A stretch of 64,000 nt of DNA from an uncultured Candidatus Saccharibacteria bacterium (lineage in GTDB: Bacteria > Patescibacteriota > Minisyncoccia > Minisyncoccales > Staskawiczbacteraceae): positions 1,918-65,917 of the forward strand of contig CAYHHX010000001.1 of the NCBI GenBank assembly GCA_964356545.1, read 5' to 3'. Of the stretch, positions 6,609-55,475 are shown piece after piece (position 1 is the first letter of the stretch; every line of letters begins with the position of its first letter). A model generated the notes under the pieces. It made no database searches. It saw only the letters and a program-made list of their open reading frames with translations, and was not told the DNA's origin. Made by a program: the position numbers and the translations under genes.

Positions 6609-6618
6609 ATTCACATCT

Positions 6619-6647
6619 TGACAACCACCATTAATAGGTGTATAATT
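6619..6647 (+). promoter_or_regulatory. Consensus sigma70 promoter (TTGACA-N17-TATAAT) at the head of the G+C-rich island.
   Basis: Sequence 'cTTGACAaccaccattaataggtgTATAATt' is a perfect -35/-10 with a 17-nt spacer. The spacer contains the REP half-site 'caaccaccatt'. Confidence 0.6.
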
Positions 6648-6797
6648 AAGTAGTAGTTAAGAATAGCACTTTTACAACATAAATTACTTGCAAGAAAACA
6701 GTCATAGCCAAAAGCTATTAAGAAATTGATAGTTTTTGGCTATGACTGCCAACTTCGGAAGTCAAGCACACACTTTTTTCAAGAAAAGGATGACGCC

Positions 6798-7040
6798 ATG
6801 ACAAAGCTCGTGACCGCATCGCAACAGCTCATGACCGACGGCCAGATCGACAACATCGTCGACAAGTTTCGTGCCGCCCTCCGCAAGCATCGTTCTGAGA
6901 TTTCCTTGAACATTGCCCAGGAGATCGTCGGTATTGAGAACCTCGGCATGGAGTGCTACGAGCCGATTCGTAAGCATGTGGAAGCTCGGAGTAATCAGAT
7001 TGTTCGTATCGTCAATGTCAATCGTATTCGTAGTGCGTAG
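6798..7040 (+). CDS. Hypothetical 80-aa protein in the G+C-rich island.
   Basis: ATG at 6798 preceded by 'aaaagga' as an SD. G+C-rich codon usage is unlike the flanks. Ends at TAG 7038-7040, in frame with the next ORF. Confidence 0.45.
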   Translation: MTKLVTASQQLMTDGQIDNIVDKFRAALRKHRSEISLNIAQEIVGIENLGMECYEPIRKHVEARSNQIVRIVNVNRIRSA

Positions 7041-7064
7041 GCAGCGCTCAATGCCACTGGTTGT

Positions 7065-7412
7065 GTGCAGTACATCGACCGTAAGGTCGTGGACAGCATG
7101 CCACGCGGCGAAGGCAAAGAAGTCGAAGTCGTATTCTTCAACCTCGGCCGATACATCAGCGACGCCGACCTCGACAAGGAGTACGAACTGCTTGGTTTCA
7201 AACCAGCAGATCCCTACTCTTTGTCCGCAGTCAACGAAGAAGATCAGGCATTTGCCGACACCAAGCCCAACGCCACTCATTGGAAGGACGAGAATGGCAA
7301 GTTGTGTTATGCCGCCTTCGACCGGTGGTTCGGCGTCGAGCGGTACGTGCGTGTCCGCCGCTTCGGCATTGGCTGGCGTGGCCACTGGTGGTTTGCTGGC
7401 GTCAGCAAGTAA
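7065..7412 (+). CDS. Hypothetical acidic protein, same frame as 6798..7040. The two may be one gene interrupted by, or reading through, the amber codon.
   Basis: Sense-looking G+C-rich ORF ('...DENGKLCYAAFDRWFGVERYVRVRRFGIGWRGHWWF'). Starts are GTG 7065 or ATG 7098. Followed by a perfect intrinsic terminator. Confidence 0.4.
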   Translation: MQYIDRKVVDSMPRGEGKEVEVVFFNLGRYISDADLDKEYELLGFKPADPYSLSAVNEEDQAFADTKPNATHWKDENGKLCYAAFDRWFGVERYVRVRRFGIGWRGHWWFAGVSK

Positions 7413-7488
7413 TCTTCAGGTCGTTCAGACTCTGAGAGTCTTCAGACTCGAAGAGTTGCCCTTGGTTTCTTGAACCTTCGGCAACAAA

Positions 7489-7528
7489 GTCCTGTTTTGC
7501 AATTGCAAAACAGGACTTCTTTTTTTTG
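7489..7528 (+). terminator. Rho-independent terminator closing the G+C-rich island.
   Basis: 'agtcctgttttgcaa|ttgcaaaacaggact' is a 15-bp perfect stem followed by T8. Confidence 0.75.
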
Positions 7529-7701
7529 TTTCAATATGATAATATAATAATCGGATAGTAGGCTATTATCAAGTCTGCGGTCAAGGCTTCAGACAACCCA
7601 ATTCCATATTTCAGGATTGTGTAGATCGGCCTCCTAAAACATGGCAACACAAAGAAGATTAAAGGTGTGGTCTTAAAATTATACAGTCAAAACTTTATTG
7701 C

Positions 7702-7730
7702 TTGACAAAGGTGTTTTTAATTAGTACTAT
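7702..7730 (+). promoter_or_regulatory. Promoter of rnpB.
   Basis: TTGACA (7702-7707), 17-nt spacer, TACTAT (7725-7730). The inferred TSS coincides with the P1 helix start. Confidence 0.5.
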
Positions 7731-7736
7731 ATAAAT

Positions 7737-8184
7737 ATCTTAACAAGATGAGTGATTGCTCTTTATTAAATTGAGGAGAGGAAAGTCCGAACACCATCCT
7801 GAACTGATTTATCAGTGAAGGATAAAATAGTAGTGGCTAACAGCCATCCATAGTAATATGCGAGGTGCGAACAGTGACGCCGAGTTTCGAAAGAAACAAG
7901 GCACCGAGTATATAAATTTATTTATGTGCGAGGTGAATTCAACTGAAAAGTTGAAGTGAAACGGCTAAATCCTTATTGGGTGCAAGAACAAAGTCCCGCC
8001 CCCTAAGCAGTTAATTTTTATCAGGAAAAACCTGAGAGAGCTCTAATAGATATATTTTTTTGAGTTCTTGAATTACAGCATAGGGGGCGGGATTAAAAGT
8101 AGTTCGCTTGAATCAAGAAGTAATTCTTGGTCTAGACAGATAATCACATAAAACAGAATTCGGCTTACGGTCTTGTTAAGATAA
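7737..8184 (+). ncRNA. rnpB: RNase P RNA, bacterial type A.
   Basis: P4 strands 'GAGGAAAGTCCGaACac' (~7783) and 'ACAGAAttCGGCTTAcGG' (~8153). The P1 helix is formed by 7737-7748 'atcttaacaaga' pairing with 8171-8182 'tcttgttaagat'. Confidence 0.85.
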
Positions 8185-13100: not shown

Positions 13101-13122
13101 CAAATTTGATAGATTTAATTTT

Positions 13123-14935: not shown

Positions 14936-15081
14936 CTGAACTCGTTTGATTGGTAGGAGGGCTTTTGTCCTTATTATCTCCGTTTTCAAACACTTATCAA
15001 ATGTGAGCGGCAGTAATGCCGTCTTTTTTGAAAATATTGATTATTTTATTGATAGATGGTACCATAAATAAAGTAAAGGTA

Positions 15082-15222
15082 ATGGAAATAAGAAAACAGA
15101 TTTTTATTTATAAAAATTCAAAGGTTGAAAATTTAATGTTTCAAGTTTTTTCTATTATTTATCATAAATATCACGAGAAAAGTTTTTCTCTTTTAAAAAA
15201 TATTTCTGGAAGTTTTATTTAA
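15082..15222 (+). CDS. Conserved small protein (46 aa). Divergent copy A of a four-member repeated unit.
   Basis: Aligns codon by codon with the copies at 44364, 49220 and 54666 (I-R/E-K/R-Q-I-F/Y...KNSKV...MF...FS...KY-H/Q-EKS-F/L-SL...IS...F-I). The differences are mostly synonymous or conservative (GAG/GAA, AAA/AAG, TTT/TTC). SD 'aaagg' upstream. Confidence 0.5.
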   Translation: MEIRKQIFIYKNSKVENLMFQVFSIIYHKYHEKSFSLLKNISGSFI

Positions 15223-15252
15223 AAATACACCCATTAGTGGGTGTATTTTTTT
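15223..15252 (+). terminator. Intrinsic terminator of repeated unit A.
   Basis: 'atacacccattagtgggtgtat' hairpin plus T7. The same hairpin, with compensatory loop changes, ends all four units. Confidence 0.7.
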
Positions 15253-15270
15253 GGGGACATCTTAGAAAAC

Positions 15271-15288
15271 GGTGGCTGTTCTCATTTC
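15271..15288. repeat. REP element (reverse orientation, partial).
   Basis: 'ggtggctgttctcatttc' matches the family consensus AATGGTGGCTGTCCCCATTTCC. Confidence 0.5.
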
Positions 15289-15354
15289 TGCCCCCCCAAC
15301 AAATTAACTTTATTTTGAAATATTATTTAATAATCAATATAATCAAAGTTGAGT

Positions 15355-18300
15355 ATGAATAAAATAAAAAACAATTTTCATAAAAATAAATTAGCATTCA
15401 GTAAAAAAGTGACGGCATATTTATTGATTGCATTATTTTTCTATTTTCCCTTAGAGTCGGTTTTTGCAGAAGAAAATATATCAGAAAATATAAACAAAGA
15501 AGAAACTTCGGCAAGCCAACTAGTCGATTCCGAAAAAAATAATCAAGAGAAACCTCTAGCAGAAAAAAATATTATCGGGGATACTAAAAATAATATTCAA
15601 CAAAAAGGTGAGCGTAAAAATAACGAGAAAGAAGATAATACAGACAAAAAAGAACGCAACAAGAAAAAGAAAAATGATTCGGATGATGAAGAATTAATCC
15701 AAGCGCAAGCTGCGGGTTCATCTTCAGGTTCATCTAATAATAATCAGTTTGCGTTTAACCCGGCCGCAAAGATAATGATGCCAGAAGCCGATACCACCAC
15801 CGGCGCGCTGGTGTATTCTTATCCTATCGAAGTGCCGTCGGGCAGAAATGGCATGGCTCCGAAAGTTTCACTGTATTATAATTCTCAGAAAAATGACAAT
15901 GCTTCAATAGTAGGATTTGGCTGGGATTTGGACATTCCCAAAATAGAAAGGGTTAACAAGCACGGAGTTAATAAATTATATGATTACCAAGATTTCCAAT
16001 CTTCGCTTTCCGGCGAGTTGGTGAATGTTTCCGGAAATGATTATGGCGCAAAAATAGAAAATGGTTCTTTTCTGAAATACCAATTAAATAATGAGATATG
16101 GACTACCACGGATAAAAAAGGCACTATTTACAAGTTTGGAAGTTCTAACTCATCAAAAATTTATAATTTATCAGATACAAGCAAAATTTACTCTTGGTAC
16201 TTAGATGAAATTATAGACACTAATGGAAATTTCATAAAATATACTTATATAAAAGATAATACTGATAATTTTTTGTACCCTGATAAAATAATTTATACAG
16301 GCAACGGAGAACTATCGGGGATTTTTTCAGTTGAATTTAAAAAAGAATCCAGGCCGGATTCCTATACAATCAATAACGCCGGTTTTTATCAAAAAATAGA
16401 TGAAAGAATTAATTCCATAGAAACATATATAGCCGGTAATTTAAACAGAAAGTATGATTTAACATACGGAATGGGAGACAACGGGAAGCGTTCTATGTTA
16501 GAAAAAATAACTGAAAGCGGGAGAGACAATCTTGGCATTACCGCCACCTTGCCATCTTTTGACATTGCCTATACCGAAGGAAATATTGGCTTGGCAGATG
16601 CTCCGTCAATCAGTTATCCGTGGGTTACAGAAACCGATTCAAATGGAAATTCTTATACAACGCCTTTTACATTAGCCGATCAATCTATCAGGATCATAGA
16701 TATAAACGGCGATGGGTTAAAAGATATTGTTAAGTCGTCTGTTGCCTACGGGCAATGGGGAGCTATGTATCCAAATTTTTGGGTTTTAAAAAATAATGGG
16801 TCAGGGTGGGTAGTGGATAATTCATGGAGTCAACCAACATATTCTTATGTTAACGGTAGCGGAAGAACAATAAGCGAATATTTTACTTTTTCAAACGCAA
16901 TTGACGTTGGAGATTGGAATGGCGACGGCAAAGATGATTTGATTAAATTTTGGGTTGAAAATTTAGGCGGCGGAGCAAATAAACAACATGCAGTTGTTTT
17001 GTTAAATACTGGTGCAGGTTGGACACAAAATACAAATATAGAAACAGATACGCCGACCTATATGAGTTATAATGCCGGTATACAGAATTTATACCTTTAC
17101 TCTGGCTCAAGTGGCTCTAGTCGTTTCATTGATCTTAATGGCGATGGATTGATTGACTGTATCAATGCTTGGAACCATCAAATAAATGGCATTAATTATC
17201 CATCTTTTGCAGTATTATATAACGATGGTGAAGATTTAAAATGGGATCCTACAGTGCTTCAACTATATTTTAAGAATAGTCCAACTTCAGCAAGTAGTCC
17301 GCTTGCGTTAACTAACAGCATAAAAATATTAGATATTAACGGCGACGGACTTGTTGATTTTATGTCCGCTCATAATTACCAAATAAACGGTATTGATAAC
17401 CCATCATTTTGGGTGCTAATAAACAATGGGCATGGCTGGGACCAGGATTTTGGTATAACACATCCCCGATACACTGCTCTTGATGTGAATGATAACCTAC
17501 AAACAAATTACTTTAGCAGCACTTCGGGGTGGCAAGTTGTTGATATAAACGCAGACAATTTACCTGATTTTATTATATTTGCGCCACTTAATAGCGGAGG
17601 CGGAACATATAAAAAAAGGAAAACAGTTTTAATAAATACTGGCAAGGGATGGATCCAAGATGACAGTTTGATTAATATTGGGGACTATTCGTATACATAT
17701 AACGGCAGCACACAAACTAATTATCCTAGTTCCAGCGATGCCGGCAGCGCTTTTCTTGATATTAACGGCGATGGGTTGGTTGATATTGCTCACCCATCTT
17801 TTTATCAGCAACAGGGAATTTACTATACTATTAATTGGACGCTTATAGGAAGCGGTAAAATTGCCAACACTTTGTCAAAGATAACATTACCTGAAGGTGG
17901 CTCTTATGACATTGCATATAAAATGACAAGCGCATATAGGGATGTTTTGGGAAATTTACTGAATAGTAGTTTACTATTAGCATATAATACGGTTGAAAAA
18001 ATAATTCAAAATGATGGCAATGGCATAACGCATATTGCAAATTACAAATATGAGGGAGGACATTTTTTCTATGGTAGTGCTTTTAATAAGCGTTTTGCGG
18101 GATTTAGTATAATTTACAAAAACGATTTTGCGGGCAATACAACCAAAACTTATTATCATACAGCCAATCAAAGCGATTCTAATTACGGAGAATTTCAAGA
18201 CGAATATTGGAAAATTGGTAAAGCATATAGTATAGAACAATATGATAATGCAAACCACTTATATACTAAAACTATAAACAAATGGGACAGTTTTGATTTA

Positions 18301-21300
18301 GGTGGTGGTTCAAAGTTTTTAAAGTTAGCTCAAACCGTAAATTATAATTTTGATGGCGATGCCACTCATCGAGATACAGCTGAAGGTTATACTTACGACA
18401 ATTCCAATGGTAATGTCACCCAGAAAGTTCAATGGGGCGAAGTGTCGGGGCAAGACAATGGAACATTTACTGATACTGGATCTGACAAATTTACCACTGA
18501 CTACGCTTATGCCTCCAATGCAAGCTTATCTATTGTTGGATTGCCATCAAAAGAAACGATAACAGATCAAAACTCGTTGAAGGTAAAGGAAAGCAAGTTT
18601 TATTACGATCTGCAGGCCTTAGGTAGTATTATTCAAGGGAACCTTACCAAAAAAGAGGATTGGAAAGTTGGTACTGCTTATATTAATAACCAAACAACTT
18701 ATAACAGCTACGGCTTGGCAACCGTTTCAACAGATCCGCGAGGCAAAACCACCAAGTATGTGTATGATGCTCATAATCTCTATCCTGCCACAGTAACCAA
18801 TGCCAAAAATCAATCCACTAACTATTTGTATAACTATGCTTTAGGGAAAATGACCCAGAAGACCGATCCAAGTAAAAGGGTATTTCAGTATGTCTACGAT
18901 GGATTGGGGCGTCTCATTGAAGAAAAACAACCGGATATTGCAACACCTTCAACATTAATAACAAAGGCAATCTATGTGTATACCGACACTCCAAACGCAG
19001 TAAGTGTTAAAAAATCCAGTTATTTGGACGCATTAAATTTTGCAGAATCATACACGTATTTTGATGGTTTAGGCAGAAAAATTCAGGAAAGGCAGGAGGC
19101 CGAGGGTACAGTTTTTGCCGTAAAAGATTATATCTACAATAATTTGGGTCTGATTACAAAAGAATCTCTACCTTATTTTTCAGCAAATTTGTCTAAGACT
19201 TCGCCAACCATTGATTCTGCGCTCTATATCAATTACAAATATGATGCCCTGGGCCGTGTAGTTTCTGTAACCAATGCAGTTGGCACTACCACAAATATGT
19301 ACAATGATTGGAAGCTTACGGTAATCGATGTAGGTGGTAAGTCTAAAGATTTATATAAAAATGCTTATGGCAGTTTAGTGCAGGTTGATGAGCATAACTC
19401 CCTTGATACATATAGCACATTGTATAACTACAACTATTTAGGAAACATTACTAAGATTACTGATGCGCTTTCTAATATCCGTAAATTTACTTATGATGGT
19501 TTGGGCCGTAGGTTAACCGCAGAAGATTTGCATGTATCATCAGATACAAGTTATGGTATCTGGACATATACCTATGACAATGCAGGTAACTTGACCCAAA
19601 CACTAGATCCAAATGGCCAAAAAGTAATCTACACTTACGACAACCTTAATCGTGTTCTCAAAGAGGACTATATTGGCGTTACTGGTACAGAGGCTACCTA
19701 TGCCTATGATGCTGGAACAGACGGCATTGGTAAATTAACCAATGTTATTAATAGCTCAATTACTAAAAACTATACCTACAATGCTTTGGGTTTATTGAAA
19801 AAAGAAACAGATAAGTTTGGCCTTACTATCTACATCACGACATATAGTTACGATAGGCAAGGCAACCAGACTACAGTTACCAATCCAGATAATTCTAAGG
19901 TGCAATATATTTACAACACAGCAGGCTTGCTTGACCAGGTCAAACGCAAGGAATCCATTGATAGCGCGTTTGTTAGTGTTGTCAATAATTTTGATTATTC
20001 TCCCGAGGGCAAAGTTACTATTCAGGAAAACTATAACGGAACAACGAACACTAATACGTATGATGTTGCCAAGCTCTACCGATTAACTAGTAAAGTTGCC
20101 ACCACTGCTAACGGAGACCGCATCCAGGATTTAAGCTACACATATGATTTAGTAGGTAATATCACTAAAATTGTAGATGCGTCCACCACTGCAACCGCCA
20201 AAACTTCCGACTACACATATGATGACCTCTATCGTTTAACCTCTGTAACTGTAACAGGCGTTGCTGTTGGCCAAGAGCCATACATTCAAACGTATAGTTA
20301 TGATGCAATAGGAAATATCATTACAAAATCGGATGTTGTTGGATCTTATATATATGACGGTACTATCTACGCCAATCCCCATGCAGTCACTATCATTGGT
20401 TCTGCAACTTTTTCGTACGATAACAATGGCAATCTGTTAAACTCTACCAGCGGTTTTATTAATACATGGGACTATAAGAATCGTTTAATACAATCAGTCA
20501 AAGAAACAATAACAAACAGCTACGGATATGATGCCGAAGGCCAAAGAGTAAAATTAATTACCGCCGATAAAAACACTTATTATCCAACTAAATCCTATAA
20601 CATTACTTTTCTAAATTCTGATACCCAAAACCCAACATCTATTACAAAGCACATCTTTGCAAACAGCATAGACATTGCTACAATAGAAGGCACAGGGGCA
20701 ACTTCTCAAATCTACTACGCATCCAAGGATTTACTGAACAGCTCTAGCATCATAACCGACAGTGTTGGCGTAATTGCTGAGACTATGGATTACTTCCCAT
20801 TCGGCGGAATCAGAATAGACCAAAAAGTCACTGGCAGCTCTTTCTCGGAACAACGTAAATTCATCGGCCAGGAATACGACCAAGACACAGGCCTAAACTA
20901 TCTTAATGCGAGATACTACAACGCAACTATTGGAAGGTTCATTTCCCAAGACCCAATGTTTTGGCAACTGCCAAATGAGCTACTCGCCGACCCGCAACAA
21001 TTGAATTCCTATTCCTACGCCCGCAATAACCCGATAATAGGTAGTGACCCGAGCGGGTTATTAACCGTCATTGTTCCTGGAACCAGCTATAATTCAAAAG
21101 ATTGGTCGTCTTCTGGCTCGATGTCAAATTTTATCTCTTCAGTTGGCAAGACCTTCAATGAAACACATCAAACAAGTGTGATAAACGATAAAAGTAATTG
21201 GTCGGGTGGCGATAATTCTAATGCTCGTCAAAAAGCAGCAGAACATATCACAGGGTTTATAAAAGACTATAAGTTTGCTGATGGAGAACAGTTAAACATT

Positions 21301-21729
21301 GTTGGACATAGCCATGGCGGAAATATTGGAATTCTTGTTAGTCAAAAAACAGAAAGAAAAATAGATAATCTTGTAACTCTTGGTACTCCAGCTAGAAGCG
21401 ATTACCAACCAAATTATGATATGGTGGGACGTCACATAAATGCATACAGTAATGTAGATATGATACAGGGAGGCGGAGGTGGACAAACAAATTTATCTGC
21501 AGTGCTTCTTGGGACTGTTGGTAATGCTTTTGGTATTCCTGGAGCAATTATTGGATATGCGCTTGGTAATATATTAGGCTGGGGAGAATTTGGTTCTGCC
21601 GGTAGAAAATTTAGTGGAGCGGAAAACATTAGTGTAACTAAAGAAGCTGGTCGTTTTAGTCCCTTTAGTTCTCATTCTAATTTATTGCAAAGTAGCGTTT
21701 GGTCAAGGGTTGATAAATTAATTAAGTAG
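15355..21729 (+). CDS. Giant secreted polymorphic toxin: signal peptide, SpvB-like domain, FG-GAP/VCBS-like repeats, RHS/YD repeats, RHS core (DPxGL), and a C-terminal alpha/beta-hydrolase (lipase/esterase-like) toxin domain.
   Basis: Signal peptide 'KKVTAYLLIALFFYFPLESVFA'. SpvB-like 'GMAPKVSLYYNSQ...IVGFGWDLDIPKIER'. Repeated 'DINGDGLxD' / 'DWNGDGKDD' motifs. Numerous YD repeats ('YTYDxxGNL', 'YxYDxLxRL'). RHS core 'RYYNATIGRFISQDP...NSYSYARNNPIIGSDPSGLL'. The C-terminus carries 'IVGHSHGGNI' (a GHSxG nucleophile elbow). ATG 15355 is preferred over the TTG at 15349. Confidence 0.85.
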   Translation: MNKIKNNFHKNKLAFSKKVTAYLLIALFFYFPLESVFAEENISENINKEETSASQLVDSEKNNQEKPLAEKNIIGDTKNNIQQKGERKNNEKEDNTDKKERNKKKKNDSDDEELIQAQAAGSSSGSSNNNQFAFNPAAKIMMPEADTTTGALVYSYPIEVPSGRNGMAPKVSLYYNSQKNDNASIVGFGWDLDIPKIERVNKHGVNKLYDYQDFQSSLSGELVNVSGNDYGAKIENGSFLKYQLNNEIWTTTDKKGTIYKFGSSNSSKIYNLSDTSKIYSWYLDEIIDTNGNFIKYTYIKDNTDNFLYPDKIIYTGNGELSGIFSVEFKKESRPDSYTINNAGFYQKIDERINSIETYIAGNLNRKYDLTYGMGDNGKRSMLEKITESGRDNLGITATLPSFDIAYTEGNIGLADAPSISYPWVTETDSNGNSYTTPFTLADQSIRIIDINGDGLKDIVKSSVAYGQWGAMYPNFWVLKNNGSGWVVDNSWSQPTYSYVNGSGRTISEYFTFSNAIDVGDWNGDGKDDLIKFWVENLGGGANKQHAVVLLNTGAGWTQNTNIETDTPTYMSYNAGIQNLYLYSGSSGSSRFIDLNGDGLIDCINAWNHQINGINYPSFAVLYNDGEDLKWDPTVLQLYFKNSPTSASSPLALTNSIKILDINGDGLVDFMSAHNYQINGIDNPSFWVLINNGHGWDQDFGITHPRYTALDVNDNLQTNYFSSTSGWQVVDINADNLPDFIIFAPLNSGGGTYKKRKTVLINTGKGWIQDDSLINIGDYSYTYNGSTQTNYPSSSDAGSAFLDINGDGLVDIAHPSFYQQQGIYYTINWTLIGSGKIANTLSKITLPEGGSYDIAYKMTSAYRDVLGNLLNSSLLLAYNTVEKIIQNDGNGITHIANYKYEGGHFFYGSAFNKRFAGFSIIYKNDFAGNTTKTYYHTANQSDSNYGEFQDEYWKIGKAYSIEQYDNANHLYTKTINKWDSFDLGGGSKFLKLAQTVNYNFDGDATHRDTAEGYTYDNSNGNVTQKVQWGEVSGQDNGTFTDTGSDKFTTDYAYASNASLSIVGLPSKETITDQNSLKVKESKFYYDLQALGSIIQGNLTKKEDWKVGTAYINNQTTYNSYGLATVSTDPRGKTTKYVYDAHNLYPATVTNAKNQSTNYLYNYALGKMTQKTDPSKRVFQYVYDGLGRLIEEKQPDIATPSTLITKAIYVYTDTPNAVSVKKSSYLDALNFAESYTYFDGLGRKIQERQEAEGTVFAVKDYIYNNLGLITKESLPYFSANLSKTSPTIDSALYINYKYDALGRVVSVTNAVGTTTNMYNDWKLTVIDVGGKSKDLYKNAYGSLVQVDEHNSLDTYSTLYNYNYLGNITKITDALSNIRKFTYDGLGRRLTAEDLHVSSDTSYGIWTYTYDNAGNLTQTLDPNGQKVIYTYDNLNRVLKEDYIGVTGTEATYAYDAGTDGIGKLTNVINSSITKNYTYNALGLLKKETDKFGLTIYITTYSYDRQGNQTTVTNPDNSKVQYIYNTAGLLDQVKRKESIDSAFVSVVNNFDYSPEGKVTIQENYNGTTNTNTYDVAKLYRLTSKVATTANGDRIQDLSYTYDLVGNITKIVDASTTATAKTSDYTYDDLYRLTSVTVTGVAVGQEPYIQTYSYDAIGNIITKSDVVGSYIYDGTIYANPHAVTIIGSATFSYDNNGNLLNSTSGFINTWDYKNRLIQSVKETITNSYGYDAEGQRVKLITADKNTYYPTKSYNITFLNSDTQNPTSITKHIFANSIDIATIEGTGATSQIYYASKDLLNSSSIITDSVGVIAETMDYFPFGGIRIDQKVTGSSFSEQRKFIGQEYDQDTGLNYLNARYYNATIGRFISQDPMFWQLPNELLADPQQLNSYSYARNNPIIGSDPSGLLTVIVPGTSYNSKDWSSSGSMSNFISSVGKTFNETHQTSVINDKSNWSGGDNSNARQKAAEHITGFIKDYKFADGEQLNIVGHSHGGNIGILVSQKTERKIDNLVTLGTPARSDYQPNYDMVGRHINAYSNVDMIQGGGGGQTNLSAVLLGTVGNAFGIPGAIIGYALGNILGWGEFGSAGRKFSGAENISVTKEAGRFSPFSSHSNLLQSSVWSRVDKLIK

Positions 21730-22032: not shown

Positions 22033-22072
22033 GGGGAAATAGGTACAGCCACTATTCTTTGTGATATGATAT
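22033..22072. repeat. REP element with a 3' extension 'tttgtgatatgatat', placed immediately 5' of the RAYT genes.
   Basis: 'gggggaaataggtacagccactattctttgtgatatgatatca'. The same extension follows the REP at 37693-37733. Confidence 0.6.
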
Positions 22073-22081
22073 CATAGTTCT

Positions 22082-22390
22082 ATGCCGAGGGTTCATAGAG
22101 TTGATATTAAAGAAGAGATATACCATATCATCAATCGCGCCAACGCACGGTTGCCGATTTTTTTTAACGAAGAAGATTATGTGCTATTTGAATTGATATT
22201 TGAGCAGGCGAAAGAAAGATTTGATATGCGTATCTTAGCATATTGCTTAATGCCAAATCATTTTCACTTGGTGTTGTGGCCAAAAGAAGATGACGACCTC
22301 CAAAAATTTATGCAATGGATTACCTTAACCCACACCCAGCGTTGTAAATGGGGTCAGCCACCATTTAATAATAAGTATGGTATACTGTAA
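22082..22390 (+). pseudogene. Truncated IS200/IS605-like HuH tyrosine transposase (RAYT, 5' fragment), cut by a REP insertion.
   Basis: Shares 'IYHIINRANARLPIF...YCLMPNHFHLVLWPKEDDDLQKFMQW' with the intact downstream copy but stops after 102 aa. The disrupted codons run through the REP 'aaatggggtcagccaccattt' (22346-22366). Confidence 0.65.
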
Positions 22391-22392
22391 GT

Positions 22393-23067
22393 ATGCCAAG
22401 AACAACAAGAACAGATGTTGCGCAAGAAATATACCATGTATTGAACAGAGCTAATGCCAGAGTGCAGATTTTTGATGACGATAAAGATTATCTAGATTTC
22501 GAAAAAATATTACAAGAAGCAGTAGAAAAGTTTAATATGGGGCTATTGGCGTATTGTATTATGCCGAACCACTGGCATTTAGTCCTGCATCCAAAACAAG
22601 ACGGCGATCTTGCTAAATTCATGGGATGGCTTTCAAATACCCATACGCGAAGATGGCATACCCAAAAGGGAACCATTGGACAAGGACATCTTTATCAGGG
22701 AAGATACAAGTCATTTTTATGCCAGCAAGATGATCATTTTATTACATTAGTTTTATATGTTGAGCGCAATGCAAAAAAGGCTGACTTGTGTAAGTTAGCT
22801 CAGGATTGGAAGTGGTCTAGCATTTGGCGAAGGGAGAGTGGATTGGCAGAGCAGACTGCGATTTTAGAGAAATGGCCGATTGATATGCCAAAAAATTATT
22901 TATCACTAGTTAATCAAAATCAAGACGCGAACGAAGAAGAAAGAATTGAAAAAGCCATTGATAAAAGTAATCCATATGGAGATACTCATTGGATTCAGAA
23001 AGTAGTTAAAAAGTTTGGTCTTGAGCAAACATTAAGAAGGGTGGGGAGGCCAAAGAATGGTGGCTGA
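22393..23067 (+). mobile_element. REP-associated tyrosine transposase (RAYT, IS200-like Y1 HuH transposase), apparently intact.
   Basis: HuH motif 'MPNHWHLVLHP' and catalytic-Tyr region 'GHLYQGRYKSF'. Its 3' end abuts the REP 'gaatggtggctgaccctaatttcc' (23056-23078). REPs of the same family are spread through the window. Confidence 0.75.
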
Positions 23068-23078
23068 CCCTAATTTCC
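23056..23078. repeat. REP element (reverse orientation) at the 3' end of the RAYT gene.
   Basis: 'aatggtggctgaccctaatttcc'. Confidence 0.6.
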
Positions 23079-24397: not shown

Positions 24398-24424
24398 AAA
24401 CAATTAGGTGGACTTTTATAAATT

Positions 24425-24456
24425 GGGGAAATGGAAATGATGACAACCACCATTTT
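24425..24456. repeat. REP element (forward orientation).
   Basis: 'ggggaaatggaaatgatgacaaccaccatttt'. Confidence 0.6.
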
Positions 24457-36716: not shown

Positions 36717-36740
36717 GGAAATGGCGACTATCCCCATTCC
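36717..36740. repeat. REP element (variant) at the left edge of the G+C-rich island.
   Basis: 'ggaaatggcgactatccccattcc'. Confidence 0.5.
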
Positions 36741-36921
36741 TCGTTGAGAGGGAAATCCGTTCCGCTCGGCGCGCCACAGTGCGCCTCGCAGTTTGCCAAA
36801 ACGAGGTTAGTCGTTCGCATTTGTTTATTCTTTGTTTGTTGACAAAAGTAGAAAGCCATGATAATAATAACTATAGCCCATCGCTCATTGAAAATTCAAT
36901 AACCTGAAAAGGAAGTTTCTA

Positions 36922-37692: not shown

Positions 37693-37733
37693 GAGAAATG
37701 GGGACAGCTACTATCCTTTGTGATATGATATAC
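37693..37733. repeat. REP element with the 'tttgtgatatgatatac' extension, at the right edge of the G+C-rich island.
   Basis: 'gagaaatggggacagctactatcctttgtgatatgatatac'. Confidence 0.6.
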
Positions 37734-41422: not shown

Positions 41423-41452
41423 GAAATGGTGGCTGTCCCCATTACCCCCCCC
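41423..41452. repeat. REP element (reverse orientation) with a C-run.
   Basis: 'gaaatggtggctgtccccattacccccccc'. Confidence 0.6.
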
Positions 41453-42178: not shown

Positions 42179-42327
42179 ATTAAATAAAGCTTAATACACC
42201 CATTTCTTGCTTTATTTTATTCCAATCAAGCGTTTTAAATGTGTCCAGCAAGCCCCTCCATTTCTCCATTCCTTAGTCCTAAGCATTTTCAGGCGCTTAT
42301 AGATGCGAAAGTTTTAAAATAATTTTT

Positions 42328-42910: not shown

Positions 42911-42932
42911 AAATGGTGGCTGTCCCTATTTC
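42911..42932. repeat. REP element (reverse orientation).
   Basis: 'aaatggtggctgtccctatttc'. Confidence 0.55.
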
Positions 42933-43433
42933 TCATTTTTCGTTTGCCTTGATTGAAGGTAGATAGATAGTGTTCTTTATTTCCCTTGGATGAATTTTTA
43001 ATAATAAATCCTTTATTTCAATAGGAAAGATATTCATTTTTTCTATTTTAGTGTAATCTACCCAAACAGGCGTAAACACATATTTATTAGAAATCTTTTT
43101 AAATTCAGGAGAGTTAGTGTTCAGTTTTGGCCTAAAAGTGCTATTTAATTCTCGGTAAAAGTAAAAACTTTTTTCATTGATATCCTTTTTGTTTAACTGA
43201 ATAATGTGGCTAAGAGTCCCTGAAATATTGTAACTTAGCTCTTCTTTTGCCTCCCTTTTCACAGCATCAATAGCGTTTTCGCCCTTTTCTATAGTGCCAC
43301 CCGGAAAACAATAATAACTGAGGTTTCCTTTTTTTCTTTTGACTAATAATATTCTCTCTTTATAGGTCAAGATAATGACTGTTCTTTTTTTAATCATTGT
43401 GTTAGAATACCATATCTTTTTACCTTTAACCAA
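42933..43433 (-). CDS. NUDIX hydrolase.
   Basis: Nudix box 'GGTIEKGENAIDAVKREAKEELSY'. Confidence 0.8.
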   Translation of the reverse strand: MVKGKKIWYSNTMIKKRTVIILTYKERILLVKRKKGNLSYYCFPGGTIEKGENAIDAVKREAKEELSYNISGTLSHIIQLNKKDINEKSFYFYRELNSTFRPKLNTNSPEFKKISNKYVFTPVWVDYTKIEKMNIFPIEIKDLLLKIHPREIKNTIYLPSIKANEK

Positions 43434-44029: not shown

Positions 44030-44363
44030 CACATTGGTTTGCGTAAAGGCGAATGATTTTATAGGAGTAACTCGTAGTTACTCCTTTTTATTTTCTGAAT
44101 TTATCACTATTCTTTCCTACTTTTCTTTGTCCGGAGATGAAAAAAAATGTCATTAATCAGTTAGTTACCCAGTACGAAAGAACTTTTGGCAAAGCACCCC
44201 ATGAATTATGCAAAGAGGTTGTCCAAGATTTAATAGCAGAAATGCCCCCAGAAGAAATTCCTTCAAGTTTAAAGTAAGTACTATTTAGTACACCAGTGGC
44301 CATAGTGTTGTTTTTTTGAAAAAACTGTTGATTGTTTTACTAACAGGTGGTATTATTAGCATA

Positions 44364-44513
44364 ATGAAGACAATAGAAAGAGGTAAGCAGATTTATATGC
44401 ATAAAAATTCAAAGGTTGGAATTTCAATGTTCCGCGCTTTTTCTAGTGTTCCTGATAAATATCAGGAAAAGAGTCTTTCTCTTTCAAAAAGTATTTCTGA
44501 AAATTTTATTTAA
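44364..44513 (+). CDS. Conserved small protein (49 aa), copy B of the repeated unit.
   Basis: Near-identical to copies C and D. Promoter TTGATT-N17-TATTAT lies directly upstream, giving a leaderless or near-leaderless start. Terminator at 44514-44543. Confidence 0.5.
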   Translation: MKTIERGKQIYMHKNSKVGISMFRAFSSVPDKYQEKSLSLSKSISENFI

Positions 44514-44543
44514 AAATACACTCATTAGCGGGTGTATTTTTTT
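44514..44543 (+). terminator. Intrinsic terminator of unit B.
   Basis: 'aatacactcattagcgggtgtattttttt'. Confidence 0.7.
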
Positions 44544-44545
44544 AA

Positions 44546-44620
44546 AAATTATGCATTTTGGAGAACATTTAACAATCGATGGATACGGTGGTAACTTTGA
44601 AAAGCTAAATGATGAAGAAT
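44546..44620 (+). pseudogene. 5' fragment of a pyruvoyl-dependent S-adenosylmethionine decarboxylase-like gene (speH/speD-like), truncated by a REP.
   Basis: 'MHFGEHLTIDGYGGNFEKLNDEE' matches the AdoMetDC N-terminus pattern G-x-H-L-x-x-D/E-x-Y-G-C/G-x-F-x-K-L-N-D. The frame then runs into the REP at 44617-44650. Confidence 0.45.
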
Positions 44621-44650
44621 GGTGGCTGTCCCCATTGTCCCTCCCATTAC
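44617..44650. repeat. REP element (reverse orientation).
   Basis: 'gaatggtggctgtccccattgtccctcccattac'. Confidence 0.6.
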
Positions 44651-48974: not shown

Positions 48975-49094
48975 ATAGAAAAAATTAAGTCGTTAAGCAA
49001 ATGAAAAAACAAATAGTAATAATTCACCGGGGTTTCGCATTTGATACGTATAAATATAATAAATGGGGTGAAATAGGGACAGAAATAGGAAATA

Positions 49095-49120
49095 GGGGAA
49101 ATGGGGACGGCCACCATTTT
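49095..49120. repeat. REP element preceded by tandem degenerate half-repeats (49061-49094).
   Basis: 'aaatggggtgaaatagggacagaaataggaaataggggaaatggggacggccaccatttt'. Confidence 0.6.
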
Positions 49121-49183
49121 ATTTAATATTTTTTATTTGAATAAAATAATTAAGTGGCTATAGTGTTGTTTTTTTAAAAACTG

Positions 49184-49212
49184 TTGATTGTTTTATTGAC
49201 AGGTGGTATTAT
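49184..49212 (+). promoter_or_regulatory. Promoter of repeated unit C (TTGATT-N17-TATTAT). The same arrangement is present in units B and D.
   Basis: TTGATT 49184-49189, 17-nt spacer, TATTAT 49207-49212. The ATG at 49220 sits ~7 nt downstream, so the transcript would be leaderless. Confidence 0.5.
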
Positions 49213-49219
49213 TAGCACG

Positions 49220-49369
49220 ATGAAGACAATAGAAAGAGGTAAGCAGATTTATACGCATAAAAATTCAAAGGTTGGAATTTCAATGTTCCGCGCTTTTTCT
49301 AGTGTTCCTGATAAATATCAGGAAAAGAGTCTTTCTCTTTCAAAAAGTATTTCTGAAAATTTTACTTAA
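49220..49369 (+). CDS. Conserved small protein (49 aa), copy C. Identical to copy D.
   Basis: MKTIERGKQIYTHKNSKVGISMFRAFSSVPDKYQEKSLSLSKSISENFT. See copies A and B for the selection argument. Confidence 0.5.
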   Translation: MKTIERGKQIYTHKNSKVGISMFRAFSSVPDKYQEKSLSLSKSISENFT

Positions 49370-49398
49370 AAATACACCAATTAGCAGGTGTATTTTTT
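49369..49398 (+). terminator. Intrinsic terminator of unit C.
   Basis: 'aatacaccaattagcaggtgtatttttt'. The stem is preserved relative to units A and B despite loop changes. Confidence 0.7.
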
Positions 49399-49415
49399 GA
49401 TTAAGTTAATGATTA

Positions 49416-49490
49416 TGCATTTTGGGGAACATCTTACAATTGATGGATATGGCGGTCTTTTTGAAAAGCTAAATGATAAAAATGGTGTCT
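49416..49490 (+). pseudogene. Second 5' fragment of the AdoMetDC-like gene (MHFGEHLTIDGYGGLFEKLNDKNGV*), ending in a degenerate REP.
   Basis: Same N-terminal peptide as at 44546, followed by 'aaaaatggtgtctgatccc' (a degenerate REP). Confidence 0.4.
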
Positions 49491-49641
49491 GATCCCACGT
49501 AGTATGTGAACCAGAGCTGGTGATTGACAACACTTTTTGGTTAATATAGTATGAAACTGAAGGATTAAGAAGCTTTGCGTTTTGCATATTTTTCCATGAT
49601 CCTTGTTGTTCTTTGAAAAAATAAAGGGAGGTTGGTAAAAC

Positions 49642-50670: not shown

Positions 50671-50839
50671 AGTACACGAGGGGTGCATACATCTGCATCC
50701 CTTTTTCTTTATTATTTTTCTAGATAGTTATAAAATATATATCTTTATGTAGGGGTGGTAGAGGGATTACTAATTTGGGTGCAACCAAATTATTTAAAGG
50801 TTCAACTCCTTTCCCCTACTCTGCCATTTTTTAATAAAA

Positions 50840-54518: not shown

Positions 54519-54555
54519 GGAAATGGGGAAATGGAAATGGGGACAGCCATTATTT
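54519..54555. repeat. REP element with tandem half-repeats.
   Basis: 'ggaaatggggaaatggaaatggggacagccattattt'. Confidence 0.6.
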
Positions 54556-54665
54556 GACAATAAAATAGAAACAGAAATAAAATCTATTTTGAAATTAAGT
54601 GGCTTACCGTCGCTTTTTTTTAAAAACTGTTGATTGTTTTATTGACAGGTGGTATTATTAGCACG

Positions 54666-54815
54666 ATGAAGACAATAGAAAGAGGTAAGCAGATTTATAC
54701 GCATAAAAATTCAAAGGTTGGAATTTCAATGTTCCGCGCTTTTTCTAGTGTTCCTGATAAATATCAGGAAAAGAGTCTTTCTCTTTCAAAAAGTATTTCT
54801 GAAAATTTTACTTAA
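54666..54815 (+). CDS. Conserved small protein (49 aa), copy D.
   Basis: Identical to copy C, including the promoter (54630-54658). Terminator at 54815-54846. Confidence 0.5.
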   Translation: MKTIERGKQIYTHKNSKVGISMFRAFSSVPDKYQEKSLSLSKSISENFT

Positions 54816-54857
54816 AAATACACCAATTAGCAGGTGTATTTTTTGATTAAGTTAATG

Positions 54858-55475
54858 ATTGATTTTACAGATTCAAAATCGGTAATTGGGCTCATCGCAG
54901 GCATTATTGCTTTTACGGCTTATATTATCTATATAATTTCAATATTAAAAGGCAGAACCAAGCCAAATAGGTCAACTTGGTGGATTTGGTCGTTTATGGG
55001 ATTGGTGGTTGGACTAAGTTATTATTTATCAGGCGCCGTTAATACTATTTGGGTTCCAGTAGTTGAGTTTATAGGGCCATTATCTATTGCACTATTGTCT
55101 GTAAAATATGGAGAAGGGAAGTTGAGCGATAAAACAGACTTAATTTGTCTCGTTGGCGCGGTTTTGAGTGTAATTTTATGGATAATATTTAATAATCCTG
55201 TTATTGCTTTAGTAACCAATTTAGCGGCCGATTCATTTGCTATTGTTCCTACTATTAAAAAATCATATTTACGACCAGAAGGAGAAGATTTTTGGGCATG
55301 GCTTGGCACAGGCACCGCCGACAGTTTGAATTTCTTTGCTGTTGAAAGATTTTCCTTTGCGATTCTTATTTATCCGATTTATATGCTCGTTTCAGACCTT
55401 ATTATAGTTATAGTATTATTAATGAAGAAAAAAGATATTATGAAAGATACTAGTTTTCTTAGAAAAAAAATATGA
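54858..55475 (+). CDS. Hypothetical multi-pass membrane protein whose start codon lies inside the 3' end of repeated unit D.
   Basis: The ATG at 54858 is the same 'gttaATGatt' that precedes the AdoMetDC-like fragment in unit C. About six hydrophobic helices. Confidence 0.45.
   Translation: MDFTDSKSVIGLIAGIIAFTAYIIYIISILKGRTKPNRSTWWIWSFMGLVVGLSYYLSGAVNTIWVPVVEFIGPLSIALLSVKYGEGKLSDKTDLICLVGAVLSVILWIIFNNPVIALVTNLAADSFAIVPTIKKSYLRPEGEDFWAWLGTGTADSLNFFAVERFSFAILIYPIYMLVSDLIIVIVLLMKKKDIMKDTSFLRKKI

Follow-up and report, generated by a model that had tools for sequence, protein, structure and literature searches.

A TIRYT-type transposase gene between inverted hairpins, and a dispersed family of such hairpins, in a groundwater bacterium of the candidate phyla radiation

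Contig CAYHHX010000001.1 derives from a Hainich groundwater metagenome and belongs to a small groundwater bacterium of the candidate phyla radiation (CPR, or Patescibacteria). In a stretch of 64,000 nucleotides of this contig (hereafter the window), an intact gene for a Y1 transposase, an enzyme with an HuH motif and a catalytic tyrosine, stands among some 15 copies of a short palindromic repeat; repeats are usually assumed to be scarce in ultra-small genomes. The question that this locus raises is to what kind of system gene and repeat belong. An original prediction, made from the letters alone, had recognised repetitive extragenic palindromic (REP) sequences linked to a REP-associated tyrosine transposase (RAYT), in the arrangement that defines such systems in proteobacteria. 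We find that it named the superfamily and the logic of the system correctly but not the class, because the enzyme is homologous to TIRYT transposases and the repeats carry the motif GGGGWSAS. With a probability of roughly three in four, the unit is a TIRtron: a TIRYT-type Y1 gene bracketed by inverted cognate hairpins of 23-25 nt, each with a bulge, together with a family of dispersed hairpins, among them singles, arrays of 5' arms and what is left of other gene units. We therefore classify it as a new CPR representative of a known and barely studied class, related to REP-RAYT systems, and not as a new kind of system. This assignment draws on the anatomy of the locus, TIRYT homology, a TnpAREP-like fold, the linkage of gene and hairpin, covariation in the stem and the polarity of hairpin doublets.

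TIRYTs were described as RAYT-like genes flanked by terminal inverted repeats (TIRs) that share GGGGWSAS, not by GTAG REPs (Di Nocera, De Gregorio & Rocco 2013; PMC3733652). The units were named TIRtrons; some TIRs overlap the 3' end of the gene ('3'ov'), and some occur as singles, dimers or clusters. Of 26 TIRYTs, 20 were later assigned to TnpAY1 subclass 2.1, which equals RAYT group 1 (Quentin, Siguier, Chandler & Fichant 2018; PMC6006769). Group 1 is the most similar to insertion sequences (IS) of the large RAYT groups, and its flanking 16-mers are modestly repeated, about 12 times per replicon (Bertels, Gallie & Rainey 2017; PMC5581495).

The gene, its terminal hairpins and their relatives

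The intact gene (22393..23067, + strand) encodes 224 residues ending in ...VGRPKNGG and matches Pfam Y1_Tnp with 67.6 bits. In BLASTP comparisons with the TIRYT sequences of Additional file 5 of Di Nocera et al. 2013 (PMC3733652), its residues 1-221 are 44% identical to RB2408 (rba2408) of R. baltica (E=2e-77) and 40% identical both to Gbem_2474 (gbm2474) and to Daud_2153 (dau2153), whereas identity to the E. coli RAYT is 21% (E=0.02). These values indicate placement among the TIRYTs and, by way of the published statement on 20 of 26 TIRYTs, probably in subclass 2.1. The HuH motif is H60-W61-H62 (NHWH) and the catalytic tyrosine is Y122 (YVERNA). Since phmmer with the single protein as query found nothing meaningful among PDB sequences, a family profile and then a fold comparison were used. 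In the profile alignment, H60-W-H62 and Y122 fall on the HuH and Tyr residues of ISDra2 TnpA, and E. coli TnpAREP was also matched; the same residues align with the published RAYT/TIRYT alignment, which bears out the expectation of an IS200/RAYT-type catalytic core. The best structural match in the fold comparison was E. coli TnpAREP. The AlphaFold2 model has a helical C-terminal region (helices 143-214), which aligns with the TIRYT C-terminus; Pfam gave no match of any kind, helix-turn-helix domains (Bac_DnaA_C, HTH_23, HTH_28) included, in C-terminal residues 128-224 (97 aa) at E<=10. Close homologues number more than 3,165, the named ones annotated mainly as Patescibacteria; the best 120 are 65-80% identical, nearly all of about 224 aa, and invariant at the catalytic residues. 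At E<=1e-3 the family comprises 25,649 representatives of clusters at 50% identity.

Two copies of the repeat flank this gene in inverted orientation, as had been predicted. The left terminal hairpin, GTAAATGGGGTCAGCCACCATTT, lies at 22344..22366 (+ strand), 26 nt before the ATG, and the right one at 23055..23077 (- strand), where it overlaps the end of the gene and supplies the codons for the final N-G-G together with the TGA stop. The left copy recurs with identical sequence at the same place in seven loci selected by protein and in the genome stretch L006, which also carries perfect 25-nt inverted copies. In general the repeat is a bulged hairpin of about 23 nt with the consensus GGAAATGGGG[A/T]CAGCCACCATTT. 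Folded as single-stranded DNA, either strand forms a stem of 8-9 bp with one bulged base and a 4-nt loop. The motif GGGGWSAS is present as GGGGTCAG in the gene-flanking copies and as GGGGACAG in the dispersed ones (GGGG[AT]CAG). The foot is G/A-rich (GGRRA-AATGGGG) and reads GTAA in the gene-flanking copies; neither GTAG nor GTGG, the forms of a 5' GT[AG]G tag, was found there.

The linkage between gene and hairpin was examined in 80 metagenome loci chosen by protein only (46-73% identity); in almost all of them two hairpins, inverted relative to each other, occupy the same two positions. The hairpin sequence tracks the protein clade: it is AATGGGGTCAGCCACCATT where the protein is at least 60% identical to that of the window, GGGGACAGCCACCATT in a clade at about 48-52% identity, and AAAGGTGTCAGGAACCTTT or related variants in others. 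Across the set, neither the loop bases G-TCAG nor the inner G-C pair varies, while the stem pairs covary, with AU 22, UA 19, GC 3 and CG 2 at one pair and GC 23 and UA 22 at another; a bulge-free version of the structure fits more poorly. Such a covarying stem around an invariant loop is what hairpin recognition by a Y1 enzyme would predict. One locus of a 1.08-Mb contig, picked by protein alone (P0095, 67% identity), has GGGGTAAATGGGGTCAGCCACCATT on either side of its gene, as perfect inverted copies of 25 nt, and tandem full and partial hairpin copies downstream.

The repeat extends well beyond the window. At least 119 stretches of GTDB species-representative genomes contain its 19-nt core, AATGGGGWCAGCCACCATT, without a mismatch; among the matches listed the majority are Patescibacteria, and the remaining labels come from about eight other phyla, although some phylum labels and short contigs may reflect binning errors. 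The long contigs with labels outside Patescibacteria are assigned to Alphaproteobacteria (393 and 411 kb, 61-66% G+C), Bdellovibrionales, Acidobacteriota, Elusimicrobia, Nitrospiraceae and others. A homologous gene stands beside the repeat in about a quarter of the core loci listed. Because the same core is found under so many phylum labels, the hairpin is not lineage-specific. The core has no match in the 2.9 million viral contigs of IMG/VR, so that carriage by phages is unsupported.

Neighbouring hairpins in these genomes are strongly polar. The spacings of pairs in +/- orientation form two clusters, one of 698-760 nt with the gene in between and one of 38-250 nt that comprises the doublets. 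No -/+ pair is closer than 216 nt, and short doublets are exclusively +/-; arrays in a single orientation, spaced at 17-130 nt, are common. In one metagenome-assembled genome (MAG; L014, L020), several sites carry near-identical doublets, and the doublets of two further loci (L113, L050) retain the start and the end of the gene, like internally deleted transposons. By comparison with known systems, the +/- doublets can be regarded as the analogue of REPINs (REP doublets forming hairpins) or of miniature inverted-repeat transposable elements (MITEs). High-G+C MAG contigs of Alphaproteobacteria and Bdellovibrionales (L023, L027, L040, L116, L118) also carry +/- doublets, of the type with A in the loop; their spacing is nearly constant (52-59 nt) and their spacer sequences are unrelated, a REPIN-like pattern far outside the CPR.

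In lineages with T in the loop, the stop codon of the transposase is the complement of the loop (CTGA) and lies inside the hairpin, which ties the end of the gene to the end of the element. AATGGTGGCTGA thereby yields proteins ending in ...NGG and AAAGGTTCCTGA proteins ending in ...KGS. Genes of A-loop lineages end 20-40 nt earlier.

Dispersed copies, gene relics and their surroundings

With GGAAATGGGGACAGCCACCATTT as query, the window contains nine matches at no more than three mismatches, against 0.00 expected from 100 dinucleotide-preserving shuffles, and a relaxed ungapped scan (<=7 mismatches) raises the number of hairpin sites to about 15. The palindromic family is thus real, and about 13 copies lie away from the intact gene. 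They spread over more than 40 kb, unlike a clustering at the gene, and are mostly intergenic as predicted: 11 of 15 fall between genes in a window 88% covered by the mechanical map of open reading frames (ORFs; P ~9e-8). Their density, at first thought noteworthy, is ordinary for the family (0.095 per kb, against a mean of 0.11 extra cognate copies per kb in the DNA flanking 37 loci selected by protein, by the same criterion). Of 17 sites originally listed, 13 are solid and two (36717 and 49480) are degenerate but supported; a half-site of loop and 3' arm, ACAACCACCATT, is all that is present near 6629 (6621..6632, + strand), and near 42258 there are only fragments resembling the 5' arm.

The remnants of further gene units lie in two places. 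A hairpin with A in the loop, GGAAATAGGTACAGCCACTATTC, at 22035..22057 (+ strand) is followed by the promoter-like tttgtgatatgatat and, 24 nt downstream, by a truncated N-terminal relic of a paralogous TIRYT gene (22082..22342, + strand; 87 aa), which shares 59% identity with the intact gene. Of the catalytic motifs, HuH (NHFH) is retained and Tyr is gone, and the homology breaks off precisely where the hairpin 22344, the left end of the intact unit, begins; the mechanical ORF runs on through this repeat to 22390. Of the two tandem transposase genes once proposed, the downstream one is therefore intact and the upstream one a relic. At only 59% identity, the paralogues are not recent copies of each other. 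A search with the 87-aa fragment returned short proteins and fragments only, and truncated homologues are numerous in metagenomes. The third copy consists of the last 22 codons of a transposase gene, LSRIVKKFGLEQTLRGVGRPKK and a stop (63423-63491, + strand), beyond which an A-loop hairpin lies on the - strand (63495-63517; together 63423..63517). One intact gene and at least two relics are thus present in 64 kb. A further hairpin at 37694..37716 (+ strand) has the same downstream leader tttgtgatatgatat as that at 22035 and no transposase gene; it looks as though a gene unit was lost here apart from its 5' end.

Several complete hairpins are preceded by repeats of their own 5' arm, and the half-repeat expansions noted earlier are present at 49061-49096 and 54519-54532, with another at 24421-24432. 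The array at 49061..49119 (+ strand) reads AAATGGGGTG AAATAGGGACAG AAATAGG AAATAGGGG, includes loop bases and leads into the hairpin 49097-49119. Partial 5'-arm repeats GGGGAAATGG precede the hairpin 24433-24455 (24421..24455, + strand), and 5'-arm repeats precede that at 54533-54555 (54519..54555, + strand; 79 nt past cysS). The remaining copies are single: 15267..15289 (-), 41424..41446 (-, one mismatch), 42911..42933 (-, two mismatches, between convergent genes), 59638..59660 (+, two mismatches) and a near-perfect palindrome, degenerate at 5-6 mismatches, at 36717..36741, 2 nt past the stop codon of an aldolase gene. To these are added 44617..44639 (-) and the degenerate 49480..49502 (-, seven mismatches), which share a paralogous flank. 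In that flank, two short ORF starts (44548-44616 and 49412-49480) encode MHFGEHLTIDGYGG(N/L)FEKLND, which we take to resemble the N-terminus of S-adenosylmethionine decarboxylase (SpeH), and each is truncated by its hairpin. Because the truncation falls at the same position, the two sites represent one duplicated event and not independent insertions.

The base in the loop separates these copies from the resident gene: the hairpins flanking the intact gene have a T, nearly all the dispersed copies and the relic at 63.4 kb an A, so that the intact enzyme is not obviously the spreader of the dispersed copies. A candidate source, the truncated paralogue as a member of the clade of A-loop genes, was rejected. 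Its nearest relatives (71-74% identity) carry hairpins of the type AAAGGGGTCAGG(T/C)ACCTTT, and genes with A-loop flanks are no nearer to it than to the intact gene.

The original prediction further held that repeats border every G+C-rich island and took this to suggest that they mediate cargo acquisition or rearrangement. Most G+C-rich stretches have no repeat at their edges, and they prove to be RNase P RNA (7740-8183), the genes for transketolase, class I aldolase and CysRS, and part of an RHS gene; they are not repeat-bounded cargo.

A second repeat family of about 246 nt adjoins a hairpin at each of its four copies: copy A (15022-15267) directly before 15267-, copy B (44313-44558) before 44617-, copy C (49169-49414) between 49097+ and 49480-, and copy D (54615-54860) after 54533+. 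They are 74-100% identical, two of them identical, and each starts with a near-consensus promoter (TTGATT-17 nt-TATTAT) and ends in an intrinsic terminator. The predicted RNA of about 200 nt has a consensus fold with five compensatory pairs; Neither for this module nor for the hairpins did Rfam give a match, whether the gathering threshold or E<=1 was applied. The module may be a small RNA or a leader, and could have been moved along with the hairpins as cargo. A 69-nt repeat with a promoter-like TTGATA-17 nt-TATG(C/T)T is present twice (58553-58621 and 63518-63586, 93% identical), once directly beside the hairpin 63495 and once with no hairpin.

The transposase relic and the intact gene lie just downstream of a polymorphic-toxin-type locus, in which a toxin-like protein of 2126 aa with SpvB, FG-GAP and RHS-repeat (YD-shell) regions (15349-21729) is followed by small membrane-protein ORFs. 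Elsewhere, the region 6609-7740 (about 45% G+C, just upstream of RNase P RNA) has overlapping ORFs on both strands and no Pfam match, and could be a further non-coding RNA or a degraded gene. ARAGORN calls a tRNA-like gene with a two-base anticodon 'gc' at 50749-50821, which the Rfam tRNA model does not report at its gathering threshold. Three related segments (57733-57846, 57968-58030 and 59852-59965; 67-84% identical) look like duplicated 3' ends of one coding sequence (...AESEGEGKGS.F...).

Competing readings and a possible mechanism

Several observations weigh against the TIRtron reading or temper it. The hairpin is short, and its folding energy as DNA is -4.7 to -5.7 kcal/mol (z -2.8 to -4.0). 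The covariation score of 0.241 (0.144 +/- 0.015 in shuffles, reached by 0 of 500; slid partners <=0.131) comes from an alignment pre-filtered by similarity to the window core (<=6 mismatches), and kinship among sequences inflates shuffle tests of this sort. Copies in the window are mostly singletons and not doublets, and given the difference in loop base the dispersed hairpins may have been spread by an enzyme other than the resident one. The multi-copy doublets inspected have neither a target-site duplication nor a conserved target. Repeat positions revealed no insertion polymorphism, as the four other samples carry 100% identical DNA of the same strain. Finally, REP-like structures were not found beside subclass 2.1 genes by Quentin et al. 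(PMC6006769).

Two small differences were recorded between samples: a C run on the + strand varies by one base at 15290, bordering the hairpin 15267 (against L003), and the only other lies at 13102-13121 (against L001), where a short spacer following a tRNA gene is variable.

The best surviving alternative, itself unlikely, is an ordinary autonomous IS of the IS200/IS605 family, in which gene and both hairpins would move jointly by peel-and-paste and the dispersed hairpins would be decayed ends and MITEs. The gene relics with attached hairpins (22035-22342, 37694, 63423-63517) would suit this explanation, as would the internally deleted doublets with gene remnants, the presence of the unit in unrelated genomic contexts and phyla, and the many truncated homologues in metagenomes. 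Yet the protein reaches only 20.6 bits against the IS200 equivalog model NF033573 (cut-off 55), its tyrosine motif belongs to class 2, tnpB is missing and the end hairpins are mutually inverted; moreover, the paralogues share just 59% identity and the viral contigs hold no copy.

Less probable still, and in our view doubtful, is that the repeats are host regulatory elements under selection (intrinsic terminators, mRNA-stabilising hairpins or promoter carriers), with the transposase an inactive passenger. It is true that hairpins in + orientation are followed by a T-rich tract (51-73% T at positions +19 to +22), that copies lie 2-150 nt downstream of genes, and that those at 22035 and 37694 share an outward-pointing extended -10-like TGATATGAT. 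However, the repeats take both orientations relative to upstream genes, keep their sequence as well as their structure across phyla only alongside this transposase family, and form 5'-arm arrays and strictly polar doublets that would be unexpected for terminators, while the transposase is intact and strongly conserved in identity, length and catalytic residues.

A canonical domesticated REP-RAYT system, with a single-copy, vertically inherited RAYT of groups 2/3 upholding a lineage-specific population of GTAG-type REPs or REPINs, is improbable, for although TnpAREP is the best structural match, the NCBIfam model REP_Tyr_transpos outscores the IS200 model (59.8 against 20.6 bits) and the gene sits between inverted hairpins with further copies dispersed intergenically, that score falls short of the equivalog cut-off of 80, identity to the E. 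coli RAYT is less than half that to a TIRYT, the hairpin has no 5' GT[AG]G tag, three or more gene copies or relics lie within 64 kb, and the identical core is found in genomes labelled as about nine phyla.

Returning to the TIRtron, its mobility and mechanism are suggested by analogy. For TnpAREP and for IS200/IS605 TnpA, the binding of hairpins on single-stranded DNA, adjacent cleavage and rejoining are established. The window enzyme would likewise recognise its hairpin on single-stranded DNA by stem shape, bulged A and loop bases, cleave beside it through Y122 with an HuH-bound metal, and rejoin the strands. The outcome would be new solo hairpins, MITE- or REPIN-like hairpin pairs and occasionally a whole gene unit, at mostly intergenic sites. 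The arrays of 5' arms with or without the loop suggest that strands were broken and rejoined many times, or slipped, on the loop's 3' side, and the A-loop family may retain its own gene copies in the window only as the relics at 22082-22342 and 63423-63488.

A broader reading is tentative. One hairpin family, in which the loop is invariably G(T/A)CAG, the stem covaries and an A is bulged, may have travelled with the TIRYT transposase across phyla and colonised the streamlined CPR genomes especially widely, as a REPIN-like replicator of single-stranded DNA whose stop codon, placed in its own hairpin loop, would couple gene expression or integrity to the element ends; the A-loop population of the window would then have outlived its gene and be served in trans by the T-loop enzyme. 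If this were true, the TIRs of this RAYT group, the largest and the least understood, would be true REP-type substrates, contrary to the 2018 classification.

TIRYTs, or RAYT group 1, form the largest group of RAYT-like genes and are without experimental characterisation, and the bulged hairpin of 23-25 nt offers a compact, defined substrate for biochemistry. The comparative set provides evidence that 'terminal inverted repeats' are structured hairpins under covariation, and the window is a case of repeat proliferation in an ultra-small genome. For annotation, the family accounts for recurrent short spurious ORFs and for protein ends of the forms '...GRPKNGG' and '...KKGS' before the stop, and flags relic transposase fragments. 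The comparative by-products (covarying bulged TIR hairpins, the stop in the loop, polar doublets and a sequence shared across phyla) are of moderate specialist interest.

Comparison with known systems

In the literature searched, no work links RAYTs to CPR bacteria, and just two mention TIRYTs. The closest known relatives are the TIRtrons. RB2408 shares with the window protein NHWH, GHLYQGRYKSF, YVERNA and the C-terminal GRP(K/R)K; in both settings, terminal inverted repeats with GGGGWSAS flank the gene, the 3' repeat overlaps the gene end, and repeats are also single or clustered, with dimers in other genomes in the present case. The window differs in that its host belongs to the Patescibacteria, outside the 2013 survey, and in that its dispersed copies are one loop base off the gene-flanking ones. 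Whereas that survey (PMC3733652) kept TIRs apart from REP hairpins, here each TIR is a bulged hairpin with a covarying stem.

With subclass 2.1 the window protein shares the long form and its C-terminal extension (224 aa against a median of 238), an NH[aromatic]H version of the HuH motif, a class-2 type of Tyr motif, low-identity paralogues in one genome and modestly repeated flanks. The motifs of the subclass, NH[VYF]H, W[EQ]/FQ and Y[IV](E/H)LNP, are close to the NHWH, YQ and YVERNA of the window and not identical with them, and RB2408 has the same variants. The window's Tyr motif thus has N-A in place of N-P, and a hairpin is evident beside its gene.

The REP/TnpAREP system of E. coli (RAYT group 2; PDB 4ER8) and the REPIN-RAYT systems of Pseudomonas resemble the unit in the imperfect, bulged palindrome, in the inverted repeats around the gene (REPtron-like) and, for REPINs, in the inverted doublets of other genomes. 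They differ in protein sequence (21% identity to E. coli) and in the GTAG tag that the window hairpin lacks; the latter is moreover common to many phyla, accompanies relics of multiple gene copies and contains a stop codon within its loop.

With the IS200/IS605 family, represented by IS608 and ISDra2 TnpA, the unit has in common the HuH/Tyr catalytic core, ends defined by hairpins and, by inference, a mechanism on single-stranded DNA. The end hairpins of IS608 and ISDra2 sit on the same strand, whereas those of the window are inverted; the window unit has no tnpB, carries Y-x3-N where IS200 has Y-x3-Q, and stays below the threshold of the IS200 model.

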